A stretch of 64,000 bases of DNA from an uncultured Gammaproteobacteria bacterium (GCA_964396715.1 CAYNFQ010000002.1:2234-66233); one strand, 5' to 3'; shown: positions 7,156-48,240, numbered from the stretch's first letter. Program-made: numbers and translations. The notes: generated by a model from the sequence alone, not told the origin.

Positions 7156-7199
7156 TTCGTAACACTCGGAATGACTCGGAGGGCCAGAATTTCAGAATA

Positions 7200-7694: not shown

Positions 7695-7749
7695 AACTTA
7701 TTAAATTCGAAATCCTAATATAATTTTGGATTTTGATATTTGAATTTGT

Positions 7750-11775: not shown

Positions 11776-11816
11776 ATTTCAGTCTTCAGCTATCAGCTTT
11801 CAGACTTTAAAATTGT

Positions 11817-11844
11817 CTGACGACTGACGACTGACGACTGACGA
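11817..11844. repeat. heptamer tandem repeat (CTGACGA)x4 abutting the dnaN start codon
   Basis: Direct reading. Confidence 0.85.
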
Positions 11845-11850
11845 CTGAAA

Positions 11851-16670: not shown

Positions 16671-16685
16671 ATCATTAGTGTATCA

Positions 16686-18449: not shown

Positions 18450-19195
18450 ACTTCTGTTCCTAATTCTTCCACCACAAACGGGTGGTTTCTTGAGTACTGG
18501 GTGGTAAGTGGCGGTACAGGAGGCTGGTTGAGTTTTTGTTCGGGAAGTGCTGATTTTAAGTCCGGTTGCACAACTATCTTTTGCGGCTCCTTTAGGGTCA
18601 CCTCCATCTGCCGGCCGCTTATTGAGAGGGGTTGGCTGCTTTGGAAACTCTGACCATTGTAGATACTGTAAAAAAGCTCAAGCAATTCTTGGCCGGTCAG
18701 TTGTGAAGTCTTAAGTCCGACTCTTGACAGTTGTCTTAAGACTTGATCCCTTCTTGGCAGCAGCACGGTTTTAATTTTCTGCTGCAGCGACTCTGTTGAG
18801 GCAGTCAGTCCCAACTCTAAGGAAAAAAGAGGAATGACTACATAGAATTTTTTATCCAGGACATCATTTTCCTTAATGGTAGTTTGAATAAACTGGCGAT
18901 AACTGACAATCATTTTTGATAAAAGCAGATTAGTCTGTATTTTTTGGGCCTTGTCCAAAAGGGTGAGGTATGAGTTGATATTTAACCTTTGAGAGTGGAT
19001 GACGATTTGGATACTGAATGATAAGGAGTTTAGCATTTGGGCAAAGCTGCCAATGATGGCCATTTGCTCTCTTTGGGAAAGCAGGCCAAAATTAACTGCC
19101 CCCACTTGTAAAACCAGTGCCCCTCCGCCTCCTTTGAGGATTAAAATGTCCTCCCGAATATCCTTAATAGACAAATGCTGCTGTGTTGTGCTCAT
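18446..19195 (-). CDS. VirB4 N-terminal domain encoded as a separate ORF (split VirB4)
   Basis: 249-aa ORF with a VirB4/CagE N-domain-like pattern; 4-nt ATGA overlap with the ATPase ORF. Confidence 0.55.
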   Translation of the reverse strand: MSTTQQHLSIKDIREDILILKGGGGALVLQVGAVNFGLLSQREQMAIIGSFAQMLNSLSFSIQIVIHSQRLNINSYLTLLDKAQKIQTNLLLSKMIVSYRQFIQTTIKENDVLDKKFYVVIPLFSLELGLTASTESLQQKIKTVLLPRRDQVLRQLSRVGLKTSQLTGQELLELFYSIYNGQSFQSSQPLSISGRQMEVTLKEPQKIVVQPDLKSALPEQKLNQPPVPPLTTQYSRNHPFVVEELGTEV

Positions 19196-20214
19196 CCTAC
19201 TGCCTCCTTTGCTGTGATTGTCAAAGGTGAGATCACCTGTCCTGTTAGTTCAATTTGCAAGACATCAAAACCGAAAGTATCTTTTTCCAATTCAATTTTA
19301 TAGGTGCCGTTTGGCAAAGGCGTTGCCCCTGAGAATTGGCCCAATTTGTTAGTTTTTAAGGCTCGGACAGGCAACCCTTCTTTATCGTAAATAACCACCA
19401 CCACGCCTTCCAGGGAGTTTCCGCGGGCATCCTTGATAATGCCGTTAATCACATTGGGAAAAGAAGTCAGGGCAATTTGGGTCGCTTTGCTTTTTTGTGG
19501 GGTGATAACTTTTACCTCAGGTTTGGCCATAGGCACAGGTATGGTTTGAGATTTTAGCTCCTCCTCGCCGACAGTTTCCAGTTGTTGTTTAATCTGCGAT
19601 GCCTGGTTGACCAAATTTTGCAAATCAGCCAAAACCTGGTTGACCTGCCCACTGTAATCAACAGGGATAGGTTTTGGTTTTTGCGCTTCTTCCCTGATAT
19701 GACTTAAGGTCCGTTCGGTTTGGATGATCTTCCATTGCAAATTTTGTGCCTCTTTTGCCAAATCAACAGTTTTTTTCAGATCATCCGCAGTAGGTATGGG
19801 TTCTGGCGGTATGACAGCCTGGCTGGGGACGGTGGTGGCTTCAGCCGGAGCTGGGGGATAAAGACCGGAAACATAGGTGACAAAGCGAGAACCAAACAGC
19901 GGGTCATTAACAGCAGTTTTGTTGTTTTTCTGCCAGACTCTTTTGGTGGGAGAATAAACAGCTTTTAAAAATGCCCCCAGCCAATAATCCAGAGGTCTTG
20001 AATTTATAGGCAAAAAAGCAAACGCAAAGCCCAAAGAGGCGGAAATTACAATCAGCGGCCAGGCAATTAAGGGATAGGCAGAGGAGACAAACACAAACAA
20101 AACATAGGCAATAGTTGAACCTGCTGCCAGATACATAAATTGTTTTAAGGTCATATCCCCGATCAGATGAAACTCAAAAGTGGTCACATTTTGCGGAATA
20201 GGATGCGGTTCCAT
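19192..20214 (-). CDS. VirB3/PrgI-like membrane protein fused to C-terminal carboxypeptidase-regulatory-like beta-sandwich domain
   Basis: N-terminal two-TM PrgI-like segment (FEFHLIGDMTLKQFMYLAAGSTIAYVLF). C-terminal GVVVVIYDKEGLPV...GTYKIELEKDTFGF CarbopepD_reg-like domain. ATGA overlap with the downstream VirB4-N ORF. Confidence 0.5.
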   Translation of the reverse strand: MEPHPIPQNVTTFEFHLIGDMTLKQFMYLAAGSTIAYVLFVFVSSAYPLIAWPLIVISASLGFAFAFLPINSRPLDYWLGAFLKAVYSPTKRVWQKNNKTAVNDPLFGSRFVTYVSGLYPPAPAEATTVPSQAVIPPEPIPTADDLKKTVDLAKEAQNLQWKIIQTERTLSHIREEAQKPKPIPVDYSGQVNQVLADLQNLVNQASQIKQQLETVGEEELKSQTIPVPMAKPEVKVITPQKSKATQIALTSFPNVINGIIKDARGNSLEGVVVVIYDKEGLPVRALKTNKLGQFSGATPLPNGTYKIELEKDTFGFDVLQIELTGQVISPLTITAKEAVG

Positions 20215-20270
20215 TAGGTAGGGTATAGCGTATAGAGAATAGGGTATAGTTGAATCTTCATAACTATAAG

Positions 20271-20660
20271 CTAAACGCTACTGACTAAACGCTTACTAAT
20301 ACCTCCTTTCTCTCTGTATACCATGACGCATAACATCTTGATGACTTCTAATAGTAATTCCTCCGATTTGCTAAAGCTCTCAGTTGGCGCTAACTGGAGT
20401 TCTTTAGAAATAACAAGCTGAGTATCCAATTCTAAAGCAGATCCGTAAGCAATAGCGTAAAATTGTAAGTATTCTTTATGTGATCGTCTAGCATAACCCT
20501 CTGCTATATTAGAAGGAATAGAAATTACTGCTCTGTGAATCTGTGAAATAATAACAAATTGCTCATTTCTGGGAAACAACGATGTTAATTTATATACCTC
20601 TTTGACTAATTGTATAGATTTTTGCCAGACAATTAATTCTTTATATGATTGTATTTTCAT
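20271..20660 (-). CDS. four-helix-bundle protein of the 23S rRNA intervening-sequence family (TIGR02436-like), copy 1
   Basis: WQKS...IAEGYAR...EYLQFYAIAYGSALELDTQL motif pattern; flanked by CTATACGCTAAACGC-type inverted repeats. Confidence 0.75.
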   Translation of the reverse strand: MKIQSYKELIVWQKSIQLVKEVYKLTSLFPRNEQFVIISQIHRAVISIPSNIAEGYARRSHKEYLQFYAIAYGSALELDTQLVISKELQLAPTESFSKSEELLLEVIKMLCVMVYREKGGISKRLVSSV

Positions 20661-20865
20661 AACTATACGCTAAACGCTACTCTCTATACGCTTCGTTATA
20701 CAATGTGAAAAAAATAATGGCAAGCAGCACAAAGGGGATCATTATGGGACAAATATGGTTAAATGACAAAATCCAAATGCCAAATTACAAATGAAATCTT
20801 AATTTCAAATTTTAAATTTTAGTCATTTGATATTGGAAATTTGAAATTCTTATGTTATTCTTAAT

Positions 20866-21053
20866 TTGTGGTGCACTAGTCCGATGTCATATCGGACCAA
20901 GGTGCAAAAAGGGAATCCGGTTAAAATCCGGAGCTGTGCCGCAACTGTGATTAGTTAGAGAATAGTAAATAGCGTACAGCGTTTAGTTATAAACAACTAT
21001 ACGCTAAACGCTTCTCTCTATACCCTAACTTTAAGTCAGGAGACCGACCACAA
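20866..21053 (+). ncRNA. cobalamin (B12) riboswitch
   Basis: Core AAGGGAATCCGGTTAAAATCCGGAGCTGTGCCGCAACTGTGA. B12-box-like AGTCAGGAGACCGACC. P1 candidates TTGTGGT/ACCACAA. Lies in the 5' leader of 21078..21986. Confidence 0.6.
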
Positions 21054-21077: not shown

Positions 21078-21986
21078 ATGTCAGTTCAACAACTTGAAAG
21101 AGAACAATTACCAACTTTTTATTCCCAGAAAGCTGAAGAGCATGCCTCCCGTGTTTTAGAAACCCACAGGATTCCTGATCCCTATTATTTTTTAATAGAT
21201 CAAGATGGTGATTTATTTTCTCCGTCAGCACACTTAAAGGTTAGGGAGAAAATAGATACCAGTACAAGAGTAGGGATGTTGGAAGCTCAAGCATTTCAGG
21301 AGACCTCTCATTGGGCATCTGGTGCCGAAGCTGGTGCAAGTGCCTGGGTTAGCCCACCAGGACATTATCCTGTCTCCAAAATTATTATAAGCGAGATTGA
21401 GAAAGTTAATGGAGTAAAAAGGATTTTTAATAGAGCAATAGTTTTGGATATTAATGAAAGCGAGTGTTTGGATTTAGGACGAAGGCTTAGTGCTTATTCA
21501 CTAAATCAGCCGTTTTTGACCTATTCAGACCAGTTAAGAAGTACTCCAATAATATTGGACACAAAAGAAAAAAATTGGCTTGAGATTATGGAAGAGGTAA
21601 TGCCTGATTCTTTTTTGTGGGAGAGTATTAGAAGAGGGGATGAGGTGATTGCCAAACAAGCAGCTTTAGCAGAAGCAGAAAGAATTTTTGCCAAATATAG
21701 AGTGCCTGGAAGAGATCACAATGACTATGCTGATAATAGAGAGATGCAGAGGGATATGCAAAGCATGCTGGGAGATAAACCGGAAAGCTGTCCTCCCAGA
21801 CTATCTTCTGGTGCGGGGCAAACTGCTTTTCAGGTTTTTTCTGAAAACGCCTTGACATTTAGTAGTTCAGCAAACAAAGACCCTGATTTTTGCGAGGTTT
21901 GTCCTGCCTGTGAAGAAATAATTAATTGTGTTGTTAAAACAGGTAGCAGTTGTCCTAAATGCGGAGCAGTCAAAAGATGTGGTTGA
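21078..21986 (+). CDS. hypothetical protein with C-terminal CxxC...CxxC zinc-ribbon; putative B12-riboswitch-controlled gene
   Basis: 302-aa ORF with AGGA RBS; C-terminal CEVCPACEE...CPKCG motif; no recognisable family. Confidence 0.5.
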   Translation: MSVQQLEREQLPTFYSQKAEEHASRVLETHRIPDPYYFLIDQDGDLFSPSAHLKVREKIDTSTRVGMLEAQAFQETSHWASGAEAGASAWVSPPGHYPVSKIIISEIEKVNGVKRIFNRAIVLDINESECLDLGRRLSAYSLNQPFLTYSDQLRSTPIILDTKEKNWLEIMEEVMPDSFLWESIRRGDEVIAKQAALAEAERIFAKYRVPGRDHNDYADNREMQRDMQSMLGDKPESCPPRLSSGAGQTAFQVFSENALTFSSSANKDPDFCEVCPACEEIINCVVKTGSSCPKCGAVKRCG

Positions 21987-23195: not shown

Positions 23196-23244
23196 ATAAA
23201 CTATTTTATCATAAGTGAGATCATTTTGTCTTCTAGCCTCCTTT

Positions 23245-23400
23245 CCGTCAGAATTTTATCAGTTTAATATCAAGCACATTATTAGTTTATCGTTTATCGT
23301 AAGATCGTTTATTGGTAACGATATCCGATATACAAAGAGGTCCGTTTTTTCGGACCGTTACGATAAACAATTTGACACAATGTTTGGGAAATTCTATTTT
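23245..23400 (+). repeat. dispersed promoter-bearing repeat, copy B (long variant)
   Basis: About 150 bp near-identical to copy C. Nested inverted repeats GTTTATCGTAA/TTACGATAAAC, GATCGTT/AACGATATC and GGTCCG/CGGACC. Ends in TTGACA-17-TATTTT. Confidence 0.7.
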
Positions 23401-23460
23401 GGTTCTTGACACCAGTCTTAACAATATACTAAAATCCGTATACTGGTAAGTGATGAATGG

Positions 23461-24167: not shown

Positions 24168-24196
24168 AGTAAGAGCACCAGAGAATAGTTTTATCC

Positions 24197-24362
24197 TGAA
24201 ATCCGTCAGGATTTAATCAGTTTAATATCAAGCACATTATTAGTTTATCGTTTATCGTAAGATCGTTTATTGGTAACGATATCCGATATACAAAGAGGTC
24301 CGTTTTTTCGGACCGTTACGATAAACAATTTGACACAATGTTTGGGAAATTCTATGCTGGAT
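24197..24362 (+). repeat. dispersed promoter-bearing repeat, copy C (long variant)
   Basis: Near-identical to copy B; ends in TTGACA-17-TATGCT. Confidence 0.7.
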
Positions 24363-24482
24363 ATATAGCTATCAGTCATCAGACGTCAGTCGTCAGACAA
24401 AAAATCTGAAAGCTGAAGACTGAAAGCTGAAAGCTAATTTAAGGCCATGGAATTTTCCAGACGGAAATGGTAAAATTGTTTC

Positions 24483-25039: not shown

Positions 25040-25130
25040 TGTAAGGAATAAATCAAGCAGTTTGACTCCGCTCAATGTAAACTTATCCCGGACTTGCAAA
25101 GATGTTTGGGAAATTCTATGCTGAAGTTAG
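25040..25130 (+). repeat. dispersed promoter-bearing repeat, copy D (short variant)
   Basis: Same conserved ends; TTGCAA-17-TATGCT promoter pointing into the 1391-aa ORF. Confidence 0.65.
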
Positions 25131-25272
25131 GGACTAGGGATTAGCAACTAGGGTTTAGTAAAAACAAACTATACCCTAAACCCTACACCCTATACCCAAA
25201 AAAAGGCCATGGAATTTTCCCAAGTATAATTGTAGAAAGTTATAACCTTGAGCGAAGCCGAAAGGGAAAAAT

Positions 25273-28200
25273 ATGGCAGAAAGATTAAGCATGGCAGAAG
25301 CAACATCCGGCCCAGGGCCAGAAGCTACACCTCCTGTGGGTGAGGGTCAAGCTGTCCCTCAATCATCAGGTGAATTAAGTCCTCAAAGACCCTGGCATAT
25401 CTCAAAAGAGTTTGATCCTAAAAGGACAGATTATACTTCAAGGGAAGAAGGGAACTGGAATATTTTTGTTGACCCTAAAACAAACAAAGAAGTAGCAAGG
25501 GCAATAAAAATGTCAGGAGGGGCAGATAAAGAAGATGGTGAATACTATGATGGTTCGCAAGAAAAACCAAAAGAATGGTGGCCTTTCACAGAGGATGAAT
25601 GGAAAAATCTTGACATTAAGGATAGGATAGTTGAGGCTGCAGTTTTGGCAATGCGGCATTATTATGACATGGATAATGTAGATAGAGCAGCTAAAGAAAA
25701 AGAATTTTCCATGGCCTATCAAGATTTTTCAGAATACGCTTTGGGTAAAAAACTTTATGACGGAAAAGATACCCGGGTTATTGCACTAGAGTTAGAACTG
25801 GTGAGCTTTGATAAAACAGAAATAGAAAAATATAAAGCAGATCCCGAAAAACAAGGACAGATTGAAGAAGCTCTAAATAACCTGGATGCTCTTGAACATG
25901 AGCAAGCCGGTATTCAAAATGCCTGGAAGGATTACGGCATTACAGATCAAAATAAGAATGATGATCAGTTACGCCCCCCGCATGTTGCACAAGATGAATG
26001 GAAGAAGTATTTGGAAGGAAAGGATGAGATTAAGACAAGATTAGAAGCAGCAAAACAGGCACTTGTAGCTTTAACCAGCCAGGAATTTTTCAATAAAAGA
26101 GAAAAAATCAAAATAGAAGTTGGAGATAAAGTCAAAGAATTAAAAGAAGAAATGGAGAAAAAAGAAAAGGAAGCAAAAAAAGAAGGTGTCCGGGTTGATG
26201 CAGAACAATGGGAGATAGATGCATATAAATTGGAGAAAGAATTGGAAAGAAGCTTATTACAGGGGACAGAAGTCTCTTCGGATCCAGATAAATCGGATGC
26301 TGATGTACCAGTTGAAGAAATACTTAGGTTTATAAAAGAAGAAGGAGAAAAGCCTGTTGCCGAACAATATACAACTGGTTTGGAACGGGCAAAAAAAGTT
26401 CTGGAATGGAATTTTCATGAGGCAAGAAAGCTTGGCATTCTGGAAGATTTGGAAGAAAGGTTTGAGGAAAGATATAAGGAACTGGCAACAGCCGTATTTT
26501 CCAAAAGCAGGACTGATCAGGGTGATACGGAGATTGAAACAAGAAGAGGTCCTCGTAATCTGACCATTGCCGAGATAAAAGAAACATTAGCCAGAGAAGC
26601 AGATGAGCGTAATCCGAATTCGCTCTCAAATACGGCAGAATCAGATACTTTCTGGAAATATCTTGTTAGAGACGGTCTTGTACCCGGAGACAGAGTAAAT
26701 CATTTTAAGGGCATCAGAAAAGCCTTTGTTGACGGGACATATGATCAAATATATGATTCTTTGTCTAACTTATATAATCGCTATAGAGCGGATGAGCTAA
26801 GAGGAAAATTGCAGCAGCAGTTAGACCGGGATGTAATAACTCAACAGCAATATGACAGAAGAATCAATGAAATAAACAACCCAAGAAATATACAAAGGAT
26901 ATCCGGAGAATGGGATGTCCGGAAATATGAAAGAGATATAATGGCCGGTCTGGATAATGAAGAGAGGGCAGAAGCAGGAAGGTTATTTTATATAGACAGG
27001 TATTACCTTACTTTAACAGGCACAACAGAAGCGCAGATTGAACAGGGTGTAAATAATTATCTGACAAGCATTTTGGAAGGAGCGCATGTTTATGATGTTC
27101 AAACAATAATGCAGAAAATGCAATATTTATCTCAGGCTATCATGTCAAAAAAAGATGTTCTTATGCAGTCCGGTATGTCAGCAACTGATGCCCAGGCAGC
27201 CTTAACCAGAATCAATATACTCGCAGAAAACAGGGGAGAATTCTATGTTATGAATTTTTCCGCGCAGAATCTTTTGATGGATGAATACTTTATTCCTTTA
27301 TATGATAAATGGGGGGGAGTGAAAGGGATTGAAAAACTGAAAGAGAGTTTGGATATGAATGATGGTTTAATTGCACCGTGTATGCTTTTGTTTTTAGATA
27401 AAAAGAACCGTTTATTATTTCAACCGGCCGGATTTAAAGGGCAGGGCATGAAAAATATTTGGGCCCAGAGAACCCTGCGGGATAAAATTAAAGGGCAGAT
27501 AGCAGAAGAGCTGGTAAATTTTCAGGCTAAAAAAGCCAATTCTACGGAATTGATGGAACAAGCCACATGGCAGGATTTCTTAAGAATGAAGTTTGAAAAA
27601 AGGTGGGATAAAAAAGATGAACAAGATAATAAAATATTTTTTAAACCAAAAGAGGAAACAGATGCTGCTAAAAAAGCATATCAGGCTGAATATATGCGGG
27701 TTAAAACGGCAGCAAAGCCTGAAGATTTGGAAAGTCTAAAAAGGTTAAGGGAGGAGTACACAAAACAAAAGAATAGGTACGATAGATTGTTGGATCGGGC
27801 CAAAAGCGCTGTTGAGACTACTTGGCAGGTGTTCAATATTTTTGGAGAATCAGCCCGTCTTGGTGCCCCTTCAATAATCATGCGTAACGGTGACCATATC
27901 AGCATTGAGGATGCAACTTATTTCTATAAATTCGTTCTATTGGATGCAATGAAGAAAAGCGGAGATACCCCGGCAATGATGAGGTGGAGAGCCTATCAAT
28001 GGGTTAAGAACCACAGGCAAAGCGAAAAAAATCCAGTTATAAAAGACGGTGTGACTACTTATGAATTAGTTGCAGGACTTGAAGATACAGGGATAACAAA
28101 AGGGGAATACGATGAATTTTTGAAAGCAGTTAAGGAGTTGAGGCTAAACGGTTATAAAGCAGCATTTAGGGAATACAGTTTTGAAGAAATTATCAGCAGA

Positions 28201-29448
28201 AATGATGTCAGACCTGTTAGGAATAATTTTATCAGTAACTATAAATCATCCAGAGAGATATTTGCTAATCCAACAGCCATGAGAGAAGCCAAAAAAGGCA
28301 GACAGCCTTTCATAAAGAATATTCTGGAAAGGTTAGACCGTTCCGGCAGGGGTCAATTTACGGCCCTGGATAGGGCAAAGATAGATGGGAAGCCTTTAGA
28401 TGGGAAGCCTTTAGATGGGAAGCCTTTAGATAAAGTACCGGACGAAAGATTAAAAGAGATTTTTGAAGATGCAATCACGGATTCTTTTGTATTCCATATT
28501 ACTGCCAGGCAATTAGCTCTCTGGGAGGCAACCTTGGAATCTTCTGTGGATGCTCAAGATAATATTGTTTACACAGATAAATTTTCCACTGGCCGGATTT
28601 ACTATGGTAGTCAGGATATCCCCTGGGGAGTTAAGAGACTGCAATATCTGCCGGAATACTGGATGACTAATAAAAGGGAAAGAATAGGCAGGGCATGGAA
28701 ACTTTTGCCATTTGTCCCTCTTTTGAAATCCGGTCTTGCCCAGGAATGTGACGCAGAAAATCTGCCGGATCTGATTCTTAATGTTAATAAAGAACATATT
28801 GATGAGCCGGGACTTAAACAAATAGCAGCAGGTTATAAAGATGCGCAGGGTTGGAGACAGCGGGGGGAGACATCAGTGGATGAACAAAGAGGGGAAACAA
28901 ATTGGGCCTGGTGGGATAAGCTGACAGTAGATGCAGCTCAGATTCTTAAAACTTTACCACAATTAGACTTTCCTCCACAATCTAAAAATGATGCTACAAA
29001 ATTAGGCATATTTGATTATATTATTGATGTACCTAACCCAGAAGAATTTATGAAGAATCATCCAATCCCGTTTGCTTCTAGAAAGGTGCTTGTTGATACA
29101 GCTAGGGAAATACTTAAAAGAGAAGCACCATTAAATGTTTTCCTGGAGGCTCAACTGGGTTATAACCGGAGCGCAGGAGGTTCCGGAATAGGCCTTGAAA
29201 TGGGTGAGAGATGGCATTACAGGATATTAAACTGGTGGTTATCAGAAGTACCAGGTGATATAGATAATAAAAGAGGCACGGAAGGAGGATTAGAAGTTAA
29301 CAGTGATGCTGCAATATTCCTAAAGTTTATTACTATCAAAAATAGCTGGTCAGCAGGTGTATCTATTTTAGACGAGGCATGGAGGCAGGCGCGGGGTACT
29401 CGTGATGCCGGTGCTTCTGATAAATTGCCGCAGGAAATTATTACTTAA
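25273..29448 (+). CDS. giant hypothetical protein (1391 aa), K/E-rich, predicted alpha-helical/coiled-coil, no signal peptide
   Basis: Uninterrupted 4.2-kb ORF with AGGGAAAAATATG RBS. Contains a (DGKPL)x3 15-bp tandem repeat at 28384-28428. No catalytic motif recognised. Confidence 0.6.
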   Translation: MAERLSMAEATSGPGPEATPPVGEGQAVPQSSGELSPQRPWHISKEFDPKRTDYTSREEGNWNIFVDPKTNKEVARAIKMSGGADKEDGEYYDGSQEKPKEWWPFTEDEWKNLDIKDRIVEAAVLAMRHYYDMDNVDRAAKEKEFSMAYQDFSEYALGKKLYDGKDTRVIALELELVSFDKTEIEKYKADPEKQGQIEEALNNLDALEHEQAGIQNAWKDYGITDQNKNDDQLRPPHVAQDEWKKYLEGKDEIKTRLEAAKQALVALTSQEFFNKREKIKIEVGDKVKELKEEMEKKEKEAKKEGVRVDAEQWEIDAYKLEKELERSLLQGTEVSSDPDKSDADVPVEEILRFIKEEGEKPVAEQYTTGLERAKKVLEWNFHEARKLGILEDLEERFEERYKELATAVFSKSRTDQGDTEIETRRGPRNLTIAEIKETLAREADERNPNSLSNTAESDTFWKYLVRDGLVPGDRVNHFKGIRKAFVDGTYDQIYDSLSNLYNRYRADELRGKLQQQLDRDVITQQQYDRRINEINNPRNIQRISGEWDVRKYERDIMAGLDNEERAEAGRLFYIDRYYLTLTGTTEAQIEQGVNNYLTSILEGAHVYDVQTIMQKMQYLSQAIMSKKDVLMQSGMSATDAQAALTRINILAENRGEFYVMNFSAQNLLMDEYFIPLYDKWGGVKGIEKLKESLDMNDGLIAPCMLLFLDKKNRLLFQPAGFKGQGMKNIWAQRTLRDKIKGQIAEELVNFQAKKANSTELMEQATWQDFLRMKFEKRWDKKDEQDNKIFFKPKEETDAAKKAYQAEYMRVKTAAKPEDLESLKRLREEYTKQKNRYDRLLDRAKSAVETTWQVFNIFGESARLGAPSIIMRNGDHISIEDATYFYKFVLLDAMKKSGDTPAMMRWRAYQWVKNHRQSEKNPVIKDGVTTYELVAGLEDTGITKGEYDEFLKAVKELRLNGYKAAFREYSFEEIISRNDVRPVRNNFISNYKSSREIFANPTAMREAKKGRQPFIKNILERLDRSGRGQFTALDRAKIDGKPLDGKPLDGKPLDKVPDERLKEIFEDAITDSFVFHITARQLALWEATLESSVDAQDNIVYTDKFSTGRIYYGSQDIPWGVKRLQYLPEYWMTNKRERIGRAWKLLPFVPLLKSGLAQECDAENLPDLILNVNKEHIDEPGLKQIAAGYKDAQGWRQRGETSVDEQRGETNWAWWDKLTVDAAQILKTLPQLDFPPQSKNDATKLGIFDYIIDVPNPEEFMKNHPIPFASRKVLVDTAREILKREAPLNVFLEAQLGYNRSAGGSGIGLEMGERWHYRILNWWLSEVPGDIDNKRGTEGGLEVNSDAAIFLKFITIKNSWSAGVSILDEAWRQARGTRDAGASDKLPQEIIT
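28384..28428 (+). repeat. 15-bp in-frame tandem repeat x3 (DGKPL) within the 1391-aa ORF
   Basis: GATGGGAAGCCTTTA x3. Confidence 0.85.
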
Positions 29449-31252
29449 TTAATCCTGGTCTTCTTGGCCACGAAAAACCACCTTTCCATCCAACGAAATT
29501 GCCCGCTTTATCAAGTACTTGAGTATGTTGAGGGTTCCAAATAGGTCCTGATGTTTCTCCAAAAAGCGCTTTATTCCATCCGCCTAATTGTCCGCCTACG
29601 GCGCCTCGTCCTTGAGCAAAATATCCCTGACCGCTTCTGATACCTCCGGAAATTTCCTGACCAAGCAACTGTCCTGCCTGGCCCATTTTCCCAATAGCGC
29701 TAACAACGATATCCGGAATTTTAGGTAATGCCACCAATGCCCCGAAAGCCAAAAGAATTTTAATAAACTCCAAATCCATGCCACCCAAAAGAGGAAAGGT
29801 TGTGTTGCCTACAATTTGTATTGGTTCCGCAGCCAAAGCAACAGGCATAAAATTGTTGCCTGCAGGACTTACTGCATCAGTAACAACTTTAAGCGGTCCA
29901 AAATCCTTCCCCAAAATAAATGCTATAAAATAAAAGACAGCCAAGACTGCGGGAAAGATTAAAATATTACCCAGCATATTTAATACCCAGTTAGTGGCAA
30001 TTCCTTGTCTGCCGGGCAGGGAAGCAGCCAGAAATTGAAAGGGAGCGCTGATTGTTAGGAAAATAATGGTCAGATAAGCGGTGATTAAACGCAGGAGCAG
30101 TTTGAGCATAGCGTATATTAGCGCAATCATAGCAATGAAACTTAATATAAATCCTAACCAAAATTGAGTAGTGGCAGCTACGATACCTCCGGCTACTGCG
30201 GTTATTAGCGGACCCAGCCACAGCCCCAAAGGGGGAGGAATAGCCGATGTTAAGGGACTGACAAATTGAGCGGCGATAAAGCCTGTAAAAAGCCTTAGCC
30301 ATCCCTGGACCTCTCCGCTTAGTTTATCAAATATAGCTATCACTGCATTTTCTGCTTTTTCTTGGGTAACTATGCTCACAAATTCACTAAAAATACTTAA
30401 AACACTATCGCCTGATATTTGCTGTACCAAGTTTGTTCTTTGCGGGTCATCTAATTTTCCTTGAGCTGCTGCAAAATAATAGCCGACTGCGTTAGTACCA
30501 ATAAAAGCAGTATCAGAAATAAATCCTGCCAAAAAGTAGGAAAAAGTAATTAAAATTAAACCAATAACTAACCCAGGTAGTGCTGCCTGGGCTGTGATGA
30601 CTGTCTGTGGGTTAATCCTTTGCCGAAACATCACCATCAGCCCGATTATGACAAAAATTATTATCATCACCAGATAAGAAATATTTCTGGAAACCTGCCA
30701 GAGGGATAAAATTGGACTTAAGACACTGGCCCCTGATCCACCTACTTGAGCCCGGGCCTCTTTTACAACTCCCAGGCCTTCTCCCAAAGATGCCAGGTAA
30801 TCTGCTGTTCTGATAGGAGGGTTTGCATAAAGTCCTGCTATAAGGCCTGTGGTGGTCCCTAAAAGCCCTCCTGAAAGATTAGCTGAGGAAAGCACCGGAA
30901 TGGACTGAATTGCTCCCTGGGCATTCTGGGTCAGCTGATAAGTTAGACAGGGTTGGCCGATTACTGATGAACCAATAGAAAGACAGGAAAAGGTATGGAA
31001 TATGTTATGCACCAGAAGGTCTGTGTATAAAGGGGAGGTGGGGGGGATGGTAGGTGGTAGTGAGTAGGTTGTAGGTTGTAGGGAAGAAGGAGAAGGAGTA
31101 GAAGTTTGGGCAAAAACAGGAGTGGTGAATAATGTCAAAATCAAAATGACAAATAACAAATGAATGACAAAGCCAAAATGACAAATAACAAATTTTTTGA
31201 AATTTAGATTTGATTTGACATTTGACATTTGAGCTTTGAGTTTTCCAACCAT
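29441..31252 (-). CDS. VirB6/TrbL-like polytopic membrane protein (putative T4SS channel component) with Gly-rich C-terminus
   Basis: Signal peptide followed by at least six TM helices and large loops; location next to the pilin and VirB4 loci. The first approximately 20 codons are encoded by AAATGTCAAAT-type repeats, so the real start may be internal. Confidence 0.4.
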   Translation of the reverse strand: MVGKLKAQMSNVKSNLNFKKFVICHFGFVIHLLFVILILTLFTTPVFAQTSTPSPSSLQPTTYSLPPTIPPTSPLYTDLLVHNIFHTFSCLSIGSSVIGQPCLTYQLTQNAQGAIQSIPVLSSANLSGGLLGTTTGLIAGLYANPPIRTADYLASLGEGLGVVKEARAQVGGSGASVLSPILSLWQVSRNISYLVMIIIFVIIGLMVMFRQRINPQTVITAQAALPGLVIGLILITFSYFLAGFISDTAFIGTNAVGYYFAAAQGKLDDPQRTNLVQQISGDSVLSIFSEFVSIVTQEKAENAVIAIFDKLSGEVQGWLRLFTGFIAAQFVSPLTSAIPPPLGLWLGPLITAVAGGIVAATTQFWLGFILSFIAMIALIYAMLKLLLRLITAYLTIIFLTISAPFQFLAASLPGRQGIATNWVLNMLGNILIFPAVLAVFYFIAFILGKDFGPLKVVTDAVSPAGNNFMPVALAAEPIQIVGNTTFPLLGGMDLEFIKILLAFGALVALPKIPDIVVSAIGKMGQAGQLLGQEISGGIRSGQGYFAQGRGAVGGQLGGWNKALFGETSGPIWNPQHTQVLDKAGNFVGWKGGFSWPRRPGLIK

Positions 31253-31295: not shown

Positions 31296-31676
31296 TTATA
31301 CAAATTCCAAATCTTTAATTCCCTGAAAATCTTTTTTATTTAAAGTGGCAAAAGAGGCTTTGTTAATGATGGCTGTGGCGGCAATAGCCGCATCTGCAAG
31401 ATCTAACCTAGAGATACTGTCTCTGGCAATTTCGCCTGCAAGTTTGGCTACTTCATATGTATAGGATAGAATCTTAAACAAGGAAATTGTATTTATCAGT
31501 TTTTTGTGACGTACTTCATCTTTAATGCTTTTCCCTTCATAAAGTTCTTGGATAGTGATTATAGAAATTGTCAGGTTTTTTTGTGGGTACTTATTGGCAA
31601 GCTTTCTTAAATGTGTTAGTTTATCATCCGGCTGACGTAAATGATCAATAATAATGCTGGTATCTACGATTACCAT
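31296..31676 (-). CDS. vapC: PIN-domain toxin VapC
   Basis: IVDTSIIID...D...ATAI PIN acidic residue pattern; overlaps the upstream antitoxin. Confidence 0.7.
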   Translation of the reverse strand: MVIVDTSIIIDHLRQPDDKLTHLRKLANKYPQKNLTISIITIQELYEGKSIKDEVRHKKLINTISLFKILSYTYEVAKLAGEIARDSISRLDLADAAIAATAIINKASFATLNKKDFQGIKDLEFV

Positions 31677-31975
31677 GCCTTTTTTCTTTCTCTGGATGCT
31701 TTAAGCTCAATTTTCCTTCTTCTTTTTTCTGTTTCAGGCCAGTCATCTCCTGCCCAGGCTCCTTGTGTGCTTTTCAGAATTTCAAGGAAAACTTCTCTCT
31801 TATTGCTTTTTTCTTCCTCAGTCACCACCTCATTTACCGGGTACATATGTATTCCGCCATTGCTGACGATCACATTTAAAAGTTGACCTGCAGAAATATT
31901 TAAATCATCCCTGATTTTTTTAGGAATGACAATCTGACCTTTTATGTTTGGGGTGACTATTGTGCCAATATTCAT
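31670..31975 (-). CDS. vapB: AbrB/MazE/SpoVT-type antitoxin VapB
   Basis: KGQIVIPKKIRDDLNISAGQLL swapped-hairpin motif. Confidence 0.6.
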   Translation of the reverse strand: MNIGTIVTPNIKGQIVIPKKIRDDLNISAGQLLNVIVSNGGIHMYPVNEVVTEEEKSNKREVFLEILKSTQGAWAGDDWPETEKRRRKIELKASRERKKAW

Positions 31976-32082
31976 AAGTCATTATGAATACAAGATTTTC
32001 TTATATTCATACTGGTAATATTTTACTACTTTCGTTAGAAAATAGCAAGCTTTGCTTATTACTTTTACCACAATTTGTCAAC

Positions 32083-32181
32083 CTATTGCGGCAAAATTTT
32101 AATGTTAAAGGTAGTTACATCTATTCCGGTAAAGGCTTTTATAAGTTGTAAAATCAGCCAGGCCAGGGCCATAAAGACCAT
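32083..32181 (-). pseudogene. C-terminal remnant of a VirB2/TrbC-like pilin paralog
   Basis: Encodes MVFMALAWLILQLIKAFTGIDVTTFNIKILPQ*. About 94% DNA identity over 68 bp with the 3' end of pilin gene 33970..34290. Confidence 0.5.
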
Positions 32182-32187
32182 AGGCGG

Positions 32188-33960
32188 TTAGCGGCGGAAT
32201 GGGTTGGGGGCGTTTCGACTTTGCTCAGATCCTATAAACTCACAGCCCTGTATGGGAAAAGGTTTTGTAGTTTTGAGTGCACCATCTGTAAGCGTCACTA
32301 CCGCTTCGGTAAAGTCTAGTACCTCTCCTTCTACGAGATTGTAGCCCCCACGGCCTACTCCGATATCCCCCCTACCCTGTGATCCTAGAGACTGAATGAA
32401 AACCCATGTGGCTAGTGGAGGGAAAATGCTCTCTCGTGGCTCTCTCGTACGTCCTACGATACCTTTTCCTGGAACGAGTTCGCCGGTGTATGACCATGAT
32501 ATTCTTGATGATCTTTCGTCTCCACGATCGACTCTTTTGTATATTCCATTAAACTCTGCAGTGAACCTTAGGTAGTCGCCTCCCGTATATTGCGTTGATA
32601 CCTCACATATCATTATGCCTTTCTCGAACGACGCTTTGCCAGTGGTAGCAATCATGATAGTTTTCCACCAGATTTCTGGATTTTTAATACTCTGTCCGTC
32701 GACTGTGTATATCTCAACACCGGTTTTTTGGACAAAGTCGATATTTACTTCCCCTGTTTGATACCGGCCTCGGAAAATGGTATCTGGTGGGAATCGCCGT
32801 AGGTTTTCAGCTGATGAGCGGGTGCACCATTCTGTATTGTCCGCTGTCGGGTCGCAGTACTTACTAAGGCCAATCTTGACTACTGTATCTTCAAAAGGTG
32901 AAACTGTAAATTCCTCAGGACGATATTGGAAGGTAGGTTGAGGTTTTAGGCGCACTGCTACCTTGTGGGGTTGTGGAGTGTTATTTTCTAATGTAATAGG
33001 CCACCAATATTCTGCCTGATCCTCTCCCCGTATACCTACCTGTTTAATAGCTACTGCAAGTTTGGCTTCTACCCCCAAAACAGCCCCCTTATCCAAATCA
33101 TTCCTTATTCCCCCACAAGCCTTTATAGAATCTTCATTAGGCCCGCATCTTCTTTTATCAGCAGTTCTGACTAAATTATCAGGGCCGATTAATGTACCAT
33201 CTTTATTTGTTGGGCTGGCTTTGATCTGTCCCTGGGGAAACTTTATTCCATCAGCAGGCAGAAATTTCCCATCCTTTTTGGCATACCAATGAAGATGAAT
33301 ACCAGAGGTATCTCCTCCAGATGGTTTTTCACAAGAAGGATTGCCCAACCTTTCCCCCTGTTTCACTTCTTGACCAACGTTTACTAACATGTTGGCAAGA
33401 TGCATATAACCGGTTCTTAAGCCTTGGCCGTGATCTATCTCCACAAGGCTGTGATTTTTATCAGTGGGATCTTTTTCATTTCCCACAACAGCTATCTTTC
33501 CAGAGGCTGATGCTTCCACAAACCTATTTTCCACAGGTTTACCACCAGGACAAGCCACCACCTCTGGTTGAGCAAAATCCAAAGCAGCGCGTACCCCGTT
33601 GGTTGAACCATCCGAGTGAGGACCAGCACTTAAATACCACAAGCCACTGAAAGGATAATCAAAACTGATTTCGCTTCTTGATTCAGCTGACTGGGCAGAT
33701 ACATTTGGCTGTGAGGGGGGCTTGGCTTCAGGGCCACAGGCAGCAGCTAGCAGACTCAAAGATGTTACACCTACAGCGTAAAGTGTTTTGACAGGTCTTG
33801 GTAAGATTTTTAACCAAGCTCTATGTCCTGGTTTAGGATCAGCAAGAGGGAGATCAACAATTCTTGCAACAGAGGCTATTCTTGCTTGTTCAAGTAACAT
33901 TTTTCTTGCTTGACTACCTTGTTCAAGTCTTTGGAAGATATTAGGCCCAAATTCTTTCAT
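32188..33960 (-). CDS. secreted/lipoprotein M23 (LytM) family metallopeptidase with large C-terminal domain of unknown function
   Basis: Lipobox-like LLAAAC; M23 motifs HGQGLRTGYMHL...GIHLHW. Confidence 0.7.
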   Translation of the reverse strand: MKEFGPNIFQRLEQGSQARKMLLEQARIASVARIVDLPLADPKPGHRAWLKILPRPVKTLYAVGVTSLSLLAAACGPEAKPPSQPNVSAQSAESRSEISFDYPFSGLWYLSAGPHSDGSTNGVRAALDFAQPEVVACPGGKPVENRFVEASASGKIAVVGNEKDPTDKNHSLVEIDHGQGLRTGYMHLANMLVNVGQEVKQGERLGNPSCEKPSGGDTSGIHLHWYAKKDGKFLPADGIKFPQGQIKASPTNKDGTLIGPDNLVRTADKRRCGPNEDSIKACGGIRNDLDKGAVLGVEAKLAVAIKQVGIRGEDQAEYWWPITLENNTPQPHKVAVRLKPQPTFQYRPEEFTVSPFEDTVVKIGLSKYCDPTADNTEWCTRSSAENLRRFPPDTIFRGRYQTGEVNIDFVQKTGVEIYTVDGQSIKNPEIWWKTIMIATTGKASFEKGIMICEVSTQYTGGDYLRFTAEFNGIYKRVDRGDERSSRISWSYTGELVPGKGIVGRTREPRESIFPPLATWVFIQSLGSQGRGDIGVGRGGYNLVEGEVLDFTEAVVTLTDGALKTTKPFPIQGCEFIGSEQSRNAPNPFRR

Positions 33961-33969
33961 AGTTAATCT

Positions 33970-34290
33970 TTAAGGTTGGCATATATTTTTTCCATTAGGA
34001 AGGACACACAAAGTTTTTATATCAAAAAAAGTTACATCTATTCCGGTAAAGGCTTTTATAAGTTGCAGTATCAGCCAGGCCAGGGCCATAAAAACCATTC
34101 CCAGAAGGGCCCAGGTGACTGTCTGGTGGGCTGCTGATACTGCCTTGGGTTCCCCTCCGGACATTAAATACTTAAAACCCGCCCAAATAAGCATAACCAA
34201 AAGGACAATAAATCCTAAGCCAACTATTACAGAAACCACGCTACTAAACACTTGTTCGATTTGTTCTAAGCCGGCTGGAGGTGGACCCAT
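33970..34290 (-). CDS. VirB2/TrbC-like T4SS pilin paralog 1
   Basis: Hydrophobic N-terminal helix, W.GFKYLMSGGEPKA...ALLGMVFMALAWLI two-helix pilin signature shared by five neighbouring genes. Confidence 0.55.
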   Translation of the reverse strand: MGPPPAGLEQIEQVFSSVVSVIVGLGFIVLLVMLIWAGFKYLMSGGEPKAVSAAHQTVTWALLGMVFMALAWLILQLIKAFTGIDVTFFDIKTLCVLPNGKNICQP

Positions 34291-34332
34291 ACTTTTAACT
34301 TAGCATGAAGAAGGACTAAAGATCAAATAGTG

Positions 34333-34746
34333 CTAGGGGGTCGGGGTCTTGAATTCCGCTGGGGTCGGGATAGGTAACGTGGTGAGGTCGGTAAATCCTA
34401 AAATTTGTGCTCCCACTCTCGCCAAAGCAAAGGCCACAGCCAAAACAGCCAGGCCGATTAAGGCGTTAATAATCCTGTTTCGCGCCTTTCCAACAGCTTC
34501 CTTATCCCCGCCTGAGACAATCCACTCAAACGCCCCCCAAATCAGCATCACCAAAACTACCAGCAGGGCAACAGCAAAAGAAATAGAAACAATGTTGGTC
34601 ACAAAGTCGCCAATCTGTTTATAGCCTTGGGGAGGAGGACTGATGGTGATGTCTGCTGCTGCCAGAGCTTGAACAGGCTGAAGTAAAGAGGCAATTGATG
34701 CACCGATAAAGGTAATTTTTTTCATTACTGACTTAACTATATCCAA
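34333..34746 (-). CDS. VirB2/TrbC-like T4SS pilin paralog 2
   Basis: Signal peptide with AAADI cleavage region; WGAFEWIVSGGDKEAVGKARNRIINALIGLAVLAVAFAL. Confidence 0.55.
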   Translation of the reverse strand: MDIVKSVMKKITFIGASIASLLQPVQALAAADITISPPPQGYKQIGDFVTNIVSISFAVALLVVLVMLIWGAFEWIVSGGDKEAVGKARNRIINALIGLAVLAVAFALARVGAQILGFTDLTTLPIPTPAEFKTPTP

Positions 34747-34779
34747 ATAATAACTGATTTGTCAAGAGGGGCAAAAATG

Positions 34780-35115
34780 TTACTGCTGCTGGTCGACAAA
34801 AAATGTGAATCCAGTAAATTGTCCCAAAACTTGGATTACCGCAAAAGCCACGGCAAAAAGCAGTATGCCGATGATGGCATTAATTATTTTTCTTTTGGCA
34901 GACTCCAGCTTTTCCTTATCCCCCTCAGATGTCAGCCAGTCCCATGCCCCCCAAAGCAGCATCAAGATTAAAACCACAGCTGCCAGAGAATAAATTAAGG
35001 CAATCAGGTTGTTTAAAAATTTAGAAATCCCCTCAGCCCCAAAACCAAATCTTTGAATTTCGGGAGGAGGACTAATAGTGCCAAAAGTATCTTTTATATC
35101 AGCAATAAGTTTCAT
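34780..35115 (-). CDS. VirB2/TrbC-like T4SS pilin paralog 3
   Basis: WGAWDWLTSEGDKEKLESAKRKIINAIIGILLFAVAFAV. Confidence 0.55.
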   Translation of the reverse strand: MKLIADIKDTFGTISPPPEIQRFGFGAEGISKFLNNLIALIYSLAAVVLILMLLWGAWDWLTSEGDKEKLESAKRKIINAIIGILLFAVAFAVIQVLGQFTGFTFFVDQQQ

Positions 35116-35546
35116 CCGATTATTTTTAAATCACTAATATTAAGTAGTCTTGCCAATAAAAACTGTAATATTAAAAATGCAAACATCAGTATTATAAACC
35201 CTACTATAGCATGGGTGATCATCTGTCTTGCCGAATCCATATCTTCTTTATTCCCTCCGGCCTTTAAAAACCTGAATGCTCCCAGCAGGAAATAAAGTAT
35301 TACCAAAAATGCGGCTACTTGAAATAAAGGCTTGACTAGCCTGGAGGTTCCACAACCTAAAGAGGTTATATCTCCAAAACCAAATTTAGAACCAATATCA
35401 ACCCCCTTTGCAGTTGTAGAGGCTGTATTTACCTCACTCTTGCATGGATCTTGTTCTTGGTCCGCGGCAAAGACAGGAGTAACAAGCAGTAGATAACTTG
35501 TAAGCAAAACTGTAAACTGTAAACTGTAAACTGTAACCTTTCTCAA
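35112..35546 (-). CDS. VirB2/TrbC-like T4SS pilin paralog 4
   Basis: Same signature (GAFRFLKAGGNKEDMDSARQMITHAIVGFIILMFAF). Probable TTG start at 35546 after a GGAGG RBS. The ORF track's ATG at 35639 would overlap the upstream gene by 97 bp. The signal peptide contains an (AAACTGT)x4 tandem repeat. Confidence 0.45.
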   Translation of the reverse strand: MRKVTVYSLQFTVLLTSYLLLVTPVFAADQEQDPCKSEVNTASTTAKGVDIGSKFGFGDITSLGCGTSRLVKPLFQVAAFLVILYFLLGAFRFLKAGGNKEDMDSARQMITHAIVGFIILMFAFLILQFLLARLLNISDLKIIG

Positions 35547-35875
35547 AATGGCGAGCCTCCTTTTGGTGGTAATATTTGAGCAGCAAAGGTGGCAATCAGG
35601 TAGGCTGTCAGTATCACCATCAGTCCGATTATGGCCCATTTAATTCTTTCTCTGGCTTTGGCCAGCTCTTCTTTTTTGCCTGAGGCTAAAATGTACTGGA
35701 ACGCCCCCCAAAGCAGCCAGTAAAAAGCCATAAAGATGGCAATATAAAAAGCAATATTTAAAAGACCGGATAAAACATCAGCCAGTTTAGCATTTTCGAA
35801 TTTAAAATTAAGGGCTTTTAAGCCGGAATCTTTTAGTAAATCGTTTAACATAAGTTTAGTAATGCCAAAGCTCAA
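35543..35875 (-). CDS. VirB2/TrbC-like T4SS pilin paralog 5
   Basis: WGAFQYILASGKKEELAKARERIKWAIIGLMVILTAYLI. Confidence 0.55.
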   Translation of the reverse strand: MSFGITKLMLNDLLKDSGLKALNFKFENAKLADVLSGLLNIAFYIAIFMAFYWLLWGAFQYILASGKKEELAKARERIKWAIIGLMVILTAYLIATFAAQILPPKGGSPF

Positions 35876-35977
35876 AGTCCAAATGTCAAATGAATTTCAA
35901 AGCCTAAATGACAAATTTTTTGTCTTTGGCATTTAGATTTGATTTGTCATTTGTAATTTGGATTTTGACATTTTACT

Positions 35978-42374: not shown

Positions 42375-42447
42375 TGATTAGCGTTTAGGGTACAGCGTAT
42401 AGTTGAATTTGAATAACTAAACGCTATACGCTATTCTCTATACGCTT

Positions 42448-48239: not shown

Positions 48240-48240
48240 T

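Follow-up and report, generated by a model that had tools for sequence, protein, structure and literature searches.

A secretion locus with a large soluble protein

The stretch of DNA analysed here (the window; 64,000 nucleotides (nt), GCA_964396715.1 CAYNFQ010000002.1:2234-66233) carries, within the genes of a type IV secretion system (T4SS), an open reading frame (ORF) for a soluble protein of 1391 amino acids (aa), called the big protein below. An identical protein is encoded in a metagenome-assembled genome (MAG) of Candidatus Daviesbacteria (NCBI HYZ05_00985), and the source of the window is a chromosome of Candidatus Daviesbacteria, which are ultrasmall bacteria of the CPR. A preliminary description, drawn up from the sequence alone, had placed a 1391-aa ORF at 25273-29448 on the plus strand, and both coordinates and length were reproduced exactly. 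The ATG is preceded, at a distance of 6 nt, by a Shine-Dalgarno (SD)-like AAAGGGA (25261-25267). The ORF is a real gene, since independent assemblies contain homologues of full length, to which the family profile aligns from end to end. The main genes of the locus are:

9840-11159: dnaA, directly before the T4SS operon
11851-12969: dnaN, directly before the T4SS operon
13836-20214, minus strand: T4SS core operon of four genes, divergently oriented
13836-16670, minus strand: M23/SLT cell-wall hydrolase
16686-18449, minus strand: VirB4 (P-loop_TraG)
18446-19195, minus strand: TraC-like protein
19192-20214, minus strand: PrgI/VirB3-like protein
21078-21986, plus strand: 302-aa soluble protein encoded 5' of the big gene, its C-terminal tail Cys-rich and zinc-ribbon-like
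25273-29448, plus strand: large soluble ORF, ATG start, 1391 aa; assigned here to family A, as an allele of the polymorphic big-protein slot of the Daviesbacteria/Microgenomatia T4SS locus
29441-31252, minus strand: membrane partner, a 603-aa polytopic protein in the VirB6 position, converging on the big ORF
33970-37875, minus strand: five T4SS_pilin (VirB2-like) genes, downstream of the membrane partner

Beyond PrgI, the order of genes is an Avd-like gene, the zinc-ribbon protein, three toxin-antitoxin (TA) cassettes (AbiEii, Gp49/HTH and a ParE-like pair), the big ORF and the 603-aa polytopic gene, followed by a VapBC pair, an M23 peptidase, the five T4SS_pilin genes and SpoIID. VirB4 thus lies about 7 kb upstream of the big ORF and the pilins about 4.5 kb downstream. 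The VirB6-like gene that had been noted beside the ORF is a convergent neighbour, the two 3' ends overlapping by 8 nt (29441-29448), and the TA cassettes lie upstream. The 603-aa partner has about 7-8 hydrophobic segments (a signal or transmembrane (TM) segment and about 6-7 TM segments) and gave no match to Pfam, TrbL/VirB6 included, even at E <= 1. Its homologues fall into at least 367 clusters; the best 120 of these are 51-71% identical to it, and those among the 120 that name a source come mostly from Daviesbacteria or Microgenomates. No type IV coupling protein (T4CP; VirD4) was found among the ORFs of at least 500 aa in the window, a distant genomic copy being possible.

Position of the big gene in related loci

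In each of 13 distinct loci, a soluble ORF of 1165-1581 aa without a Pfam match lies tail-to-tail with a membrane gene in the VirB6 position (13/13), and PrgI, TraC-like and VirB4 genes lie upstream and pilin genes downstream of the big ORF wherever the contig extends that far. Five of the 13 loci were selected through the membrane partner alone and so form an unbiased test; all five carry a Pfam-less ORF of 1221-1581 aa convergent to the partner. The preliminary description had proposed co-occurrence with VirB4 as a check; judged by the VirB6-position gene, co-occurrence with the machine holds in every locus, the five partner-selected ones included. The partner genes of the relatives are also convergent and encode 580-655 aa, with 70% (locus L002) and 50% (L005) identity to the 603-aa protein, and the full T4SS arrangement of the window recurs in L002, L006, L008, L013 and L014. 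Comparison of the loci shows the big gene to be an evidently dedicated member of the T4SS locus, one allele of a polymorphic slot for large soluble proteins.

The interval between PrgI and the partner is a hotspot, in which AbiEii, Gp49/HTH, ParE-like, PIN/VapBC and AAA_14/DUF4143 genes and an insertion sequence vary between genomes. L006 and L008 contain no TA cassettes at all, with the big gene still beside the partner; the TA island of the window is therefore a secondary insertion. No conserved small gene was found downstream of the big gene, and the small ORFs upstream of it differ among loci. L008 also has dnaN beside its T4SS cluster, as in the window, which fits the origin-proximal placement published for T4SS loci of Patescibacteria. 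In the RIFCSPHIGHO2_02_FULL_39_12 lineage, a DDE transposase gene (DDE_Tnp_1/DDE_Tnp_4) stands exactly between the big gene and the VirB6-position gene:

14216-15136 (L002 coordinates; L001, L002, L003 and L004): DDE transposase insertion, splitting the otherwise abutting 3' ends

Divergence and replacement of the big protein

Across the other loci, identity to the window amounts to 81-88% for VirB4, 55-71% for the TraC-like protein, 55-69% for PrgI, 50-70% for the partner and 47-68% for the four small orthologous pilins. For the big protein it is 61% in L002, 30% in L014, 28% in L006, 25% in L005 and 22%, over one third of the length, in L008, and the L012 protein gives a weak profile match only. 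By these identities, the big protein evidently evolves several-fold faster than every component of the machine and stands out as by far the fastest-changing part of the locus, modular and replaceable.

In L013, the partner is 65% identical to that of the window, and the big protein matches the window protein only at aa 1-91 of the latter (L013 aa 7-98; 43% identity); no relationship of its remaining ~1450 aa to family A was found by BLAST, hidden Markov model (HMM) or hhalign. L013 aa 79-1534 match the big protein of L016, the two being 34% identical over 1571 aa, and this family B goes undetected by the family-A HMM and compares with family A at hhalign probabilities of 5% and 0.4%. As judged from the alignments, the L013 protein is thus chimeric, an N-terminal module of the window type being joined to a body of family B. 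The big-slot protein of L017 forms a third family (C) with no detectable sequence relationship. All positional equivalents (12/12) belong to one physical type, with 1165-1581 aa, no TM segment, 29-33% charged residues, a net charge of -17 to -45 and at most 0.26% Cys.

Most loci also carry, in the interval from PrgI to the big gene, a soluble, Pfam-less protein of 296-478 aa, the zinc-ribbon protein, with a Cys-rich tail such as CEVCPACEEIINCVVKTGSSCPKCGAVKRCG. The counterparts of the 302-aa protein of the window are:

L002 5341-6777: zinc-ribbon protein
L006 5328-6719: zinc-ribbon protein
L010 343-1704: zinc-ribbon protein
L008 7571-8623, minus strand: zinc-ribbon protein
L013 17542-18468, minus strand: zinc-ribbon protein
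L014 16768-17658, minus strand: zinc-ribbon protein
L017 15051-15965, minus strand: zinc-ribbon protein

This protein is polymorphic as well: identity is 47-50% in L013 and L014, the L017 protein is a homologue, and no homology could be detected in L002, L006 and L008. It assorts independently of the big-protein family. Directly upstream of the big gene, L005 (2250-2498, plus strand), L009 (3-227) and L010 (3420-3659) have an ORF of 74-82 aa with no equivalent in the window. The 82-aa ORF of L005 encodes, as a separate small protein, a paralogue of the partner's C-terminal tail (aa 476-540; 38% identity over 65 aa, E = 7e-12). It may act as a mimic, chaperone or regulator, and its presence could reflect a physical association of the big protein with the partner. 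An origin of the big gene by fission from an extended VirB6 is unlikely, as the two genes converge.

Termini of the big-slot proteins

Most big-slot proteins of families A and B begin with the tag [I/V]-E-[R/K]-x0-3-M-[A/P]-[E/G], followed by a Ser/Gly/Pro-rich stretch; examples are MLNIERPIMAEGTSGPEG in L016 (family B) and MAEGTSGPETG and MANVERIMAEGNSGPGPEG in the family-A proteins P0003 and P0007. When a relaxed form of the motif was sought in the first 16 residues of 358 ORFs from 250 kb of loci, it matched six times, each time in a big-slot gene. GAR-AGA is used throughout for the E-R codons of the tag, and the spacing of these codons in L005, L009 and L012 suits an SD sequence for the second ATG; since these codons are purine-rich and so spaced, the N-terminal 'ER..M' was downgraded as a clean peptide signal. 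For the MAEG(T/N)SGPE stretch and the 91-aa module, it is the protein sequence that is conserved. At the C-terminus, 27 of 33 members have a net positive charge over their final 25 aa, in contrast to their acidic bodies; the mean charge is +2.1 versus -0.59 for the average sequence window (Wilcoxon p ~ 2e-5, the sequences being non-independent).

Composition and predicted structure

The big protein had been described as lacking a signal peptide and TM segments, and its hydropathy agrees: the Kyte-Doolittle mean over 19 residues reaches at most 1.13, versus 1.8-2.9 in the neighbouring membrane protein, and the N-terminus is polar and disordered. The reported want of a recognisable enzymatic motif was likewise upheld by a scan for seven catalytic motifs (Walker A, HExxH, Fic, GxSxG, PLD, CxxC and LPxTG), which was empty. 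Other parts of the preliminary description need qualification. The label K/E-rich fits two patches, at aa ~250-330 and ~750-825, to which truly K/E-rich sequence is restricted; overall the content is only moderate (K+E 18.8%, charged residues 32.9%, net charge -31, hence acidic). The protein is mostly helical according to AlphaFold2, as had been said, but the phrase 'charged helical' undersells a compact globular C-terminal two-thirds that is confidently predicted. The parts of the protein are:

25273-25545, plus strand: N-terminal module, aa 1-91, with the tag MAERLSMAEATSGPGPE, a disordered Pro/Gly-rich linker and a small 3-stranded beta unit
25570-26892, plus strand: aa ~100-540, an elongated region of long helices that includes the first K/E-rich patch (aa 250-330)
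26590-29445, plus strand: compact C-terminal body, aa 440-1391, from the AlphaFold2 model, carrying the best-conserved family motifs
28382-28431, plus strand: (DGKPL)x3 repeat, a perfect 15-nt x 3.3 tandem
29374-29445, plus strand: non-helical C-terminal tail with a family-A-conserved W-R-x3-R-x2-R...P motif

AlphaFold2 models were built for two segments, aa 440-1391 (from a 31-row alignment) and aa 1-560. The former (952 aa) is compact and mainly alpha-helical with few small beta elements, at a mean predicted local distance difference test (pLDDT) score of 85.6 and a predicted template modelling (pTM) score of 0.81. The latter has a pLDDT of 79.9 yet a pTM of 0.43: in the elongated region (aa ~100-540) local confidence is high and the global arrangement uncertain, and within the N-terminal module aa 1-40 are disordered (pLDDT <40), with the three-stranded beta unit at aa 55-78. 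The family motifs of the C-terminal body are FxPxGFxGQ (~aa 716-724), GESAxLG...NGD (~858-874), PxxNNF (~981-986) and GSGxGxE (~1303-1309). Because the positions conserved across the family are mostly Gly or structural residues, with G720, G858 and G960 invariant and D874 the sole near-invariant acidic residue, the pattern does not look like that of an enzyme active site. Foldseek searches with both models against PDB, and with the C-terminal model against BFVD, returned nothing below E = 0.04, with TM-scores of at most 0.12; the top, non-significant matches are alpha-solenoids, namely the HEAT subunits of condensin and cohesin, and importin.

The (DGKPL)x3 repeat that had been singled out in the preliminary description is present as a perfect tandem. 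The unit is single-copy in close homologues, versus three copies in the window protein, and the site is a family-variable loop (65% gaps in the alignment, pLDDT 56); it is therefore a recent lineage-specific slippage event of no evident functional weight, and a functional repeat domain was ruled out on the same grounds. No internal repeats were found within the big ORF, nor a paralogue of it elsewhere in the window.

Homologues and family size

Searches of Pfam, NCBIfam and PDB sequences with the big protein gave no match, nor did Pfam and NCBIfam searches with 24 family members individually, the family profile against PDB sequences or the L013 protein against PDB sequences. No relative of the big protein was found by tblastn among 72,556 plasmid and 50,697 phage records. 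A word-indexed search of 5.8 billion clusters matched 6 proteins, and HMMER, run exhaustively on 1.84 billion cluster representatives with a profile of aa 440-1391, matched 27 at E <= 1e-3, 22 of them at E <= 1e-10; most of the 27 have 1165-1579 aa, and the shorter ones mostly match the C-terminal part of the profile only. Pattern scans hit 1 of 185,579 GTDB species representatives and one JGI metagenome contig, both from the same Daviesbacteria MAG (RIFCSPHIGHO2_02_FULL_39_12); being pattern-based, these scans miss divergent members of the family. As far as these searches reach, the family is rare and lineage-restricted. Neither sequence nor fold searches brought out an SMC, ribosome-associated or other housekeeping family, the outcome that the preliminary description had set against its own proposal. 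Among the hallmarks of SMC proteins sought in the big protein, there was no Walker A motif, no family match and no significant fold match, and the C-terminal 952 aa are compact instead.

Promoter region

A 41-nt promoter-like unit occurs four times in the window, at 22253, 23361, 24319 and 25083, and the last of these (25083-25123) includes TTGCAA-N17-TATGCT, about 150 nt 5' of the ATG of the big ORF. The elements of this 5' region are:

25074-25123, plus strand: promoter-like unit, with a AATGTAAACT box at 25074-25083, TTGCAA at 25094-25099, a 17-nt spacer and TATGCT at 25117-25122
25124-25202, plus strand: palindromic element of ~78 nt with heptamer repeats, inserted 3' of the -10 and 5' of the leader box; L013 and L014 lack it
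25203-25220, plus strand: conserved leader box AAGGCCATGGAATTTTCC, within the leader/SD region 25203-25272

The copy before the big gene is weaker than those of the TA cassettes, having a degenerate -35 (TTGCAA), 8 of 12 consensus positions and a score under the scan threshold. The composite unit, made up of a GTGTAAACT box, TTGACA-N17-TATGCTG, a GCCATAGAATTTCC leader box, SD and ATG, stands 5' of the big gene in L013, L014 and partly L002, and also 5' of the TA cassettes of the window. Since it precedes orthologues in other Daviesbacteria genomes, it would be the native promoter type of the big gene rather than one borrowed from the TA cassettes; we infer its promoter function from sequence. 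The 'cassette promoter' of the preliminary description thus stands in so far as the repeated unit is real and its sequence fits, the promoter being of the gene's own type.

The ~78-nt palindrome at 25124-25202 folds as a hairpin in the 5' untranslated region (5'-UTR; z = -3.5). Intergenic palindromes of ~70-80 nt built of tandem heptamers occur at 25124-25202, 24360-24440, 11777-11850, 42377-42449 and 20245-21035; they are alike in design and differ in sequence (e.g. TAGGGAC.../...CCCTAAA and CAGTCAT.../...CTGAAAG), and two lie between a -10 and a leader box. They may be 5'-UTR hairpins, insulators or a family resembling miniature inverted-repeat transposable elements. Two different TA cassettes are each preceded by one copy of a 172-nt direct repeat (23231-23402 and 24189-24360; 94% identity), which together with the common promoter unit suggests that the cassettes were assembled via duplication of one promoter-leader module.

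Other features of the region

Genes for 23S_rRNA_IVP/bAvd-like four-helix bundles recur in the T4SS/pilin cluster, usually adjoining the first, large pilin-domain gene:

Window 20271-20660, minus strand: 23S_rRNA_IVP/bAvd-like gene
Window 35978-36376, minus strand: 23S_rRNA_IVP/bAvd-like gene
L012 7557-7946: 23S_rRNA_IVP/bAvd-like gene
L014 5839-6195 and 7464-7820: 23S_rRNA_IVP/bAvd-like genes
L016 4304-4711: 23S_rRNA_IVP/bAvd-like gene

Diversification of the big gene by a diversity-generating retroelement, an idea prompted by these Avd-like genes, was rejected: there is no template/variable repeat pair in or near the ORF and no reverse transcriptase among the scanned ORFs. Between the VirB6-position gene and the pilins (31296-33960, minus strand) lie a VapBC-like pair, consisting of a PIN-domain gene and an upstream partner ORF, and a 590-aa M23 peptidase, of which no homologue was found in six compared loci. 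Two beta-propeller (PQQ/WD40-like) proteins of ~610 aa are encoded downstream of the T4SS region (45712-50064, plus strand), and a large serine recombinase (Resolvase/Recombinase/Zn_ribbon_recom) near the window end (60024-61700, minus strand). In a Microgenomates genome (L016), a Fic-domain protein of 395 aa is encoded inside the pilin/VirB6-position cluster (6836-8023, minus strand); Fic proteins are classic T4SS effectors in other bacteria.

Secreted cargo, machine subunit or bystander

We tentatively hypothesize that the big protein is a T4SS-dependent translocated substrate or a host-specificity factor, a reading that we hold to be possible. The protein has neither a Sec signal nor a TM segment; the T4SS would engage it via its termini, and it would be translocated towards the host cell as a substrate or effector, or else set host or partner specificity; its divergence would then be an adaptation to differing hosts. 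A polymorphic secreted cargo is favoured because conserved termini are found on interchangeable bodies beside a conserved secretion machine. The preliminary description had put forward, with due caution, a T4SS substrate or effector, a defence protein or a structural protein. Of the first of these, the link to the T4SS is strong (13/13 loci), and what favours the substrate part is the evolutionary pattern, that is, fast divergence, family replacement, a retained N-terminal module and basic C-terminal tails.

Several observations weigh against a translocated substrate. No toxin or enzyme domain and no obvious immunity gene was recognised for the big protein, no member of the family having a Pfam domain. 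In its first half the tag may be a signal for translation, and the protein may in truth start at the second Met (window position 25291). The signals known for T4SSs lie at the C-terminus, and the tail of the window protein there carries a net charge of -1. Classical T4SS substrates are recruited by a T4CP, and none is encoded among the ORFs of at least 500 aa in the window. Structure alone makes alpha-helical scaffolds change fast, and families B and C might share the fold. Finally, a machine subunit would account at least as well as cargo for a gene whose place is strictly fixed and which is single-copy and constant in size.

Such a subunit is the alternative that survives best, and we consider it somewhat unlikely. 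The big protein would then be a cytoplasmic structural or adaptor subunit of the T4SS that docks on the VirB6-position protein and/or VirB4 and replaces the missing coupling protein. Position, copy number and size class are invariant in 13/13 loci, the physical character is the same in all three families, and family-A members are homologous over their whole length, what they conserve being mostly Gly and structural residues, with hardly a polar residue invariant. The weak top Foldseek matches to alpha-solenoids, the mimic of the partner's C-terminal tail encoded upstream in L005 and the missing T4CP among the ORFs of at least 500 aa would also suit a subunit. In one variant, the protein would take the role of the ARM-repeat-annotated hydrophilic regions of SEML1_0011 and SEML1_0013 in Saccharibacteria, and its sequence change would reflect weak constraint on a helical scaffold. 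According to Tables S1/S2 of the study of Southlakia epibionticum, SEML1_0011 (998 aa) is essential and has a permease-like KEGG assignment and an ARM-repeat annotation, and SEML1_0013 (1088 aa) is annotated as VirB6-like with ARM repeats (PMC10633639); both lie between PrgI and the pilin array, which adds to the case for a subunit. However, a protein in contact with VirB4 (81-88% identity) and the membrane partner (50-70%) would not be expected to drop to 22%, nor would replacement by sequence-unrelated families between close loci be expected, as in L013 with its 65% identical partner and unrelated body. The big and zinc-ribbon proteins, moreover, assort independently of the machine and of each other, and the big gene is convergent to the partner gene rather than co-transcribed with it.

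That the big protein is a defence or accessory cargo of the variable island of TA and abortive-infection (Abi) genes, lying inside the T4SS locus by chance, is highly unlikely. The hotspot of varying TA/Abi genes between PrgI and the partner speaks for such cargo, and large polymorphic proteins are common in defence islands. Yet none of six representatives from families A and B matched PADLOC or PHROGs, no plasmid or phage relative and no NTPase or nuclease motif was found in the searches above, and the T4SS partner is present in every locus found. The big gene also keeps its exact place while TA/Abi cassettes vary or, as in L006 and L008, are missing, so that the defence role raised in the preliminary description is not borne out. 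That the big protein belongs, beyond the reach of sequence methods, to a housekeeping family of SMC-like, ribosome-associated or similar type is exceedingly improbable: its large size, charge and helicity would fit, and its weak Foldseek matches include HEAT subunits of condensin and cohesin, but these matches are non-significant, there is no Walker A motif, 0/24 members have a Pfam, NCBIfam or PDB-sequence match, and a family so rare (27 representatives in 1.84 billion proteins; 1 of 185,579 GTDB species representatives by pattern scan) is incompatible with a housekeeping role.

Comparison with known secretion systems

For the favoured reading of a translocated substrate or specificity factor, CagA of the Helicobacter pylori cag T4SS island offers an analogy. 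CagA is a soluble, locus-encoded protein of ~120-145 kDa without a Sec signal, largely alpha-helical and of a fold without precedent, which is polymorphic between strains while the machine is conserved. By analogy only, the big protein is likewise large, soluble, encoded in the locus, devoid of a Sec signal, alpha-helical and polymorphic beside a conserved machine; no similarity to CagA in sequence or structure was found, and Foldseek gave no significant match to anything in PDB. CagA is delivered by a diderm T4SS with a coupling protein into eukaryotic cells, and its variable region is a C-terminal repeat segment, in contrast to the whole-body replacement in the big-protein slot. A conserved recognition module with interchangeable bodies, encoded beside a conserved secretion machine, is also characteristic of proteins in bacterium-bacterium interactions, such as the X-Tfe effectors of the bacteria-killing T4SS of Xanthomonadales, the LXG proteins of type VII secretion systems (T7SS) and Rhs proteins. 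The big slot similarly pairs a conserved module with interchangeable bodies, as seen in L013 and in the tag common to families A and B. X-Tfe proteins bind VirD4 through a C-terminal XVIPCD and have recognisable toxin domains and adjacent immunity genes, whereas the module of the big slot is N-terminal, no VirD4 is encoded nearby and no toxin domain or immunity gene was recognised.

In the T4SS-related accounts of Patescibacteria, the T4SS is essential for epibiotic growth of S. epibionticum, the one Patescibacterium with genetics (PMC10633639), and such systems are described as usually lacking a relaxase and having an unknown cargo (PMC10633639, PMC12102498, PMC12857230). According to the T4SS-repertoire parts of PMC12102498, they are chromosomal, adjoin dnaA/dnaN, are related to the mating-pair formation type MPF-FATA and possess pilin arrays, VirB6 being unrecognisable by HMM in Microgenomatia. 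The window agrees with this picture in having VirB4, TrsD/TraC-like and PrgI proteins, cell-wall hydrolases, a divergent VirB2-like pilin array and adjacent dnaA/dnaN, and in having no relaxase or T4CP near the locus; the large soluble protein, its polymorphism and the zinc-ribbon protein go unmentioned in those same parts of PMC12102498. The regions of SEML1_0011 and SEML1_0013 and the 'extended VirB6' proteins, as presented in the T4SS parts of PMC10633639 and PMC12857230, resemble the big protein, by annotation, in lying in the same part of the cluster (PrgI to pilins) of a relaxase-less T4SS and in being helical, hydrophilic and without assigned function. Unlike the big protein, the SEML1 regions belong to membrane-annotated proteins (VirB6-like and permease-like), whereas the window has a separate, convergent, soluble 1391-aa protein and a 603-aa VirB6-position protein. 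The T4SS itself is thus known; a large soluble polymorphic protein at the VirB6-adjacent position is not mentioned in the T4SS-related parts of the 2025 survey, of the S. epibionticum study with its tables or of a 2025 T4SS review.

Implications for the Patescibacteria type IV secretion system

Taken furthest, the big-protein slot could encode the long-sought cargo of the Patescibacteria T4SS: an N-terminal tag, in place of a C-terminal signal, would direct polymorphic soluble proteins of ~150 kDa, with a fold absent from the searched libraries, to a monoderm T4SS that bears a pilus but has no coupling protein, for delivery to a host bacterium; whole-body allele replacement would track host range, and the L005 tail copy and the polymorphic zinc-ribbon protein would serve as chaperone or adaptor. 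In this complete form the proposal is doubtful. On comparative evidence only, the big protein is a testable candidate for the cargo or host-specificity determinant of the Microgenomatia T4SS, for which the N-terminal tag, the basic tail, the partner-tail mimic and the zinc-ribbon neighbour provide experimental handles. If the big protein is instead a cytoplasmic adaptor, it would reveal how the cytoplasmic face of a coupling-protein-less T4SS is organised.

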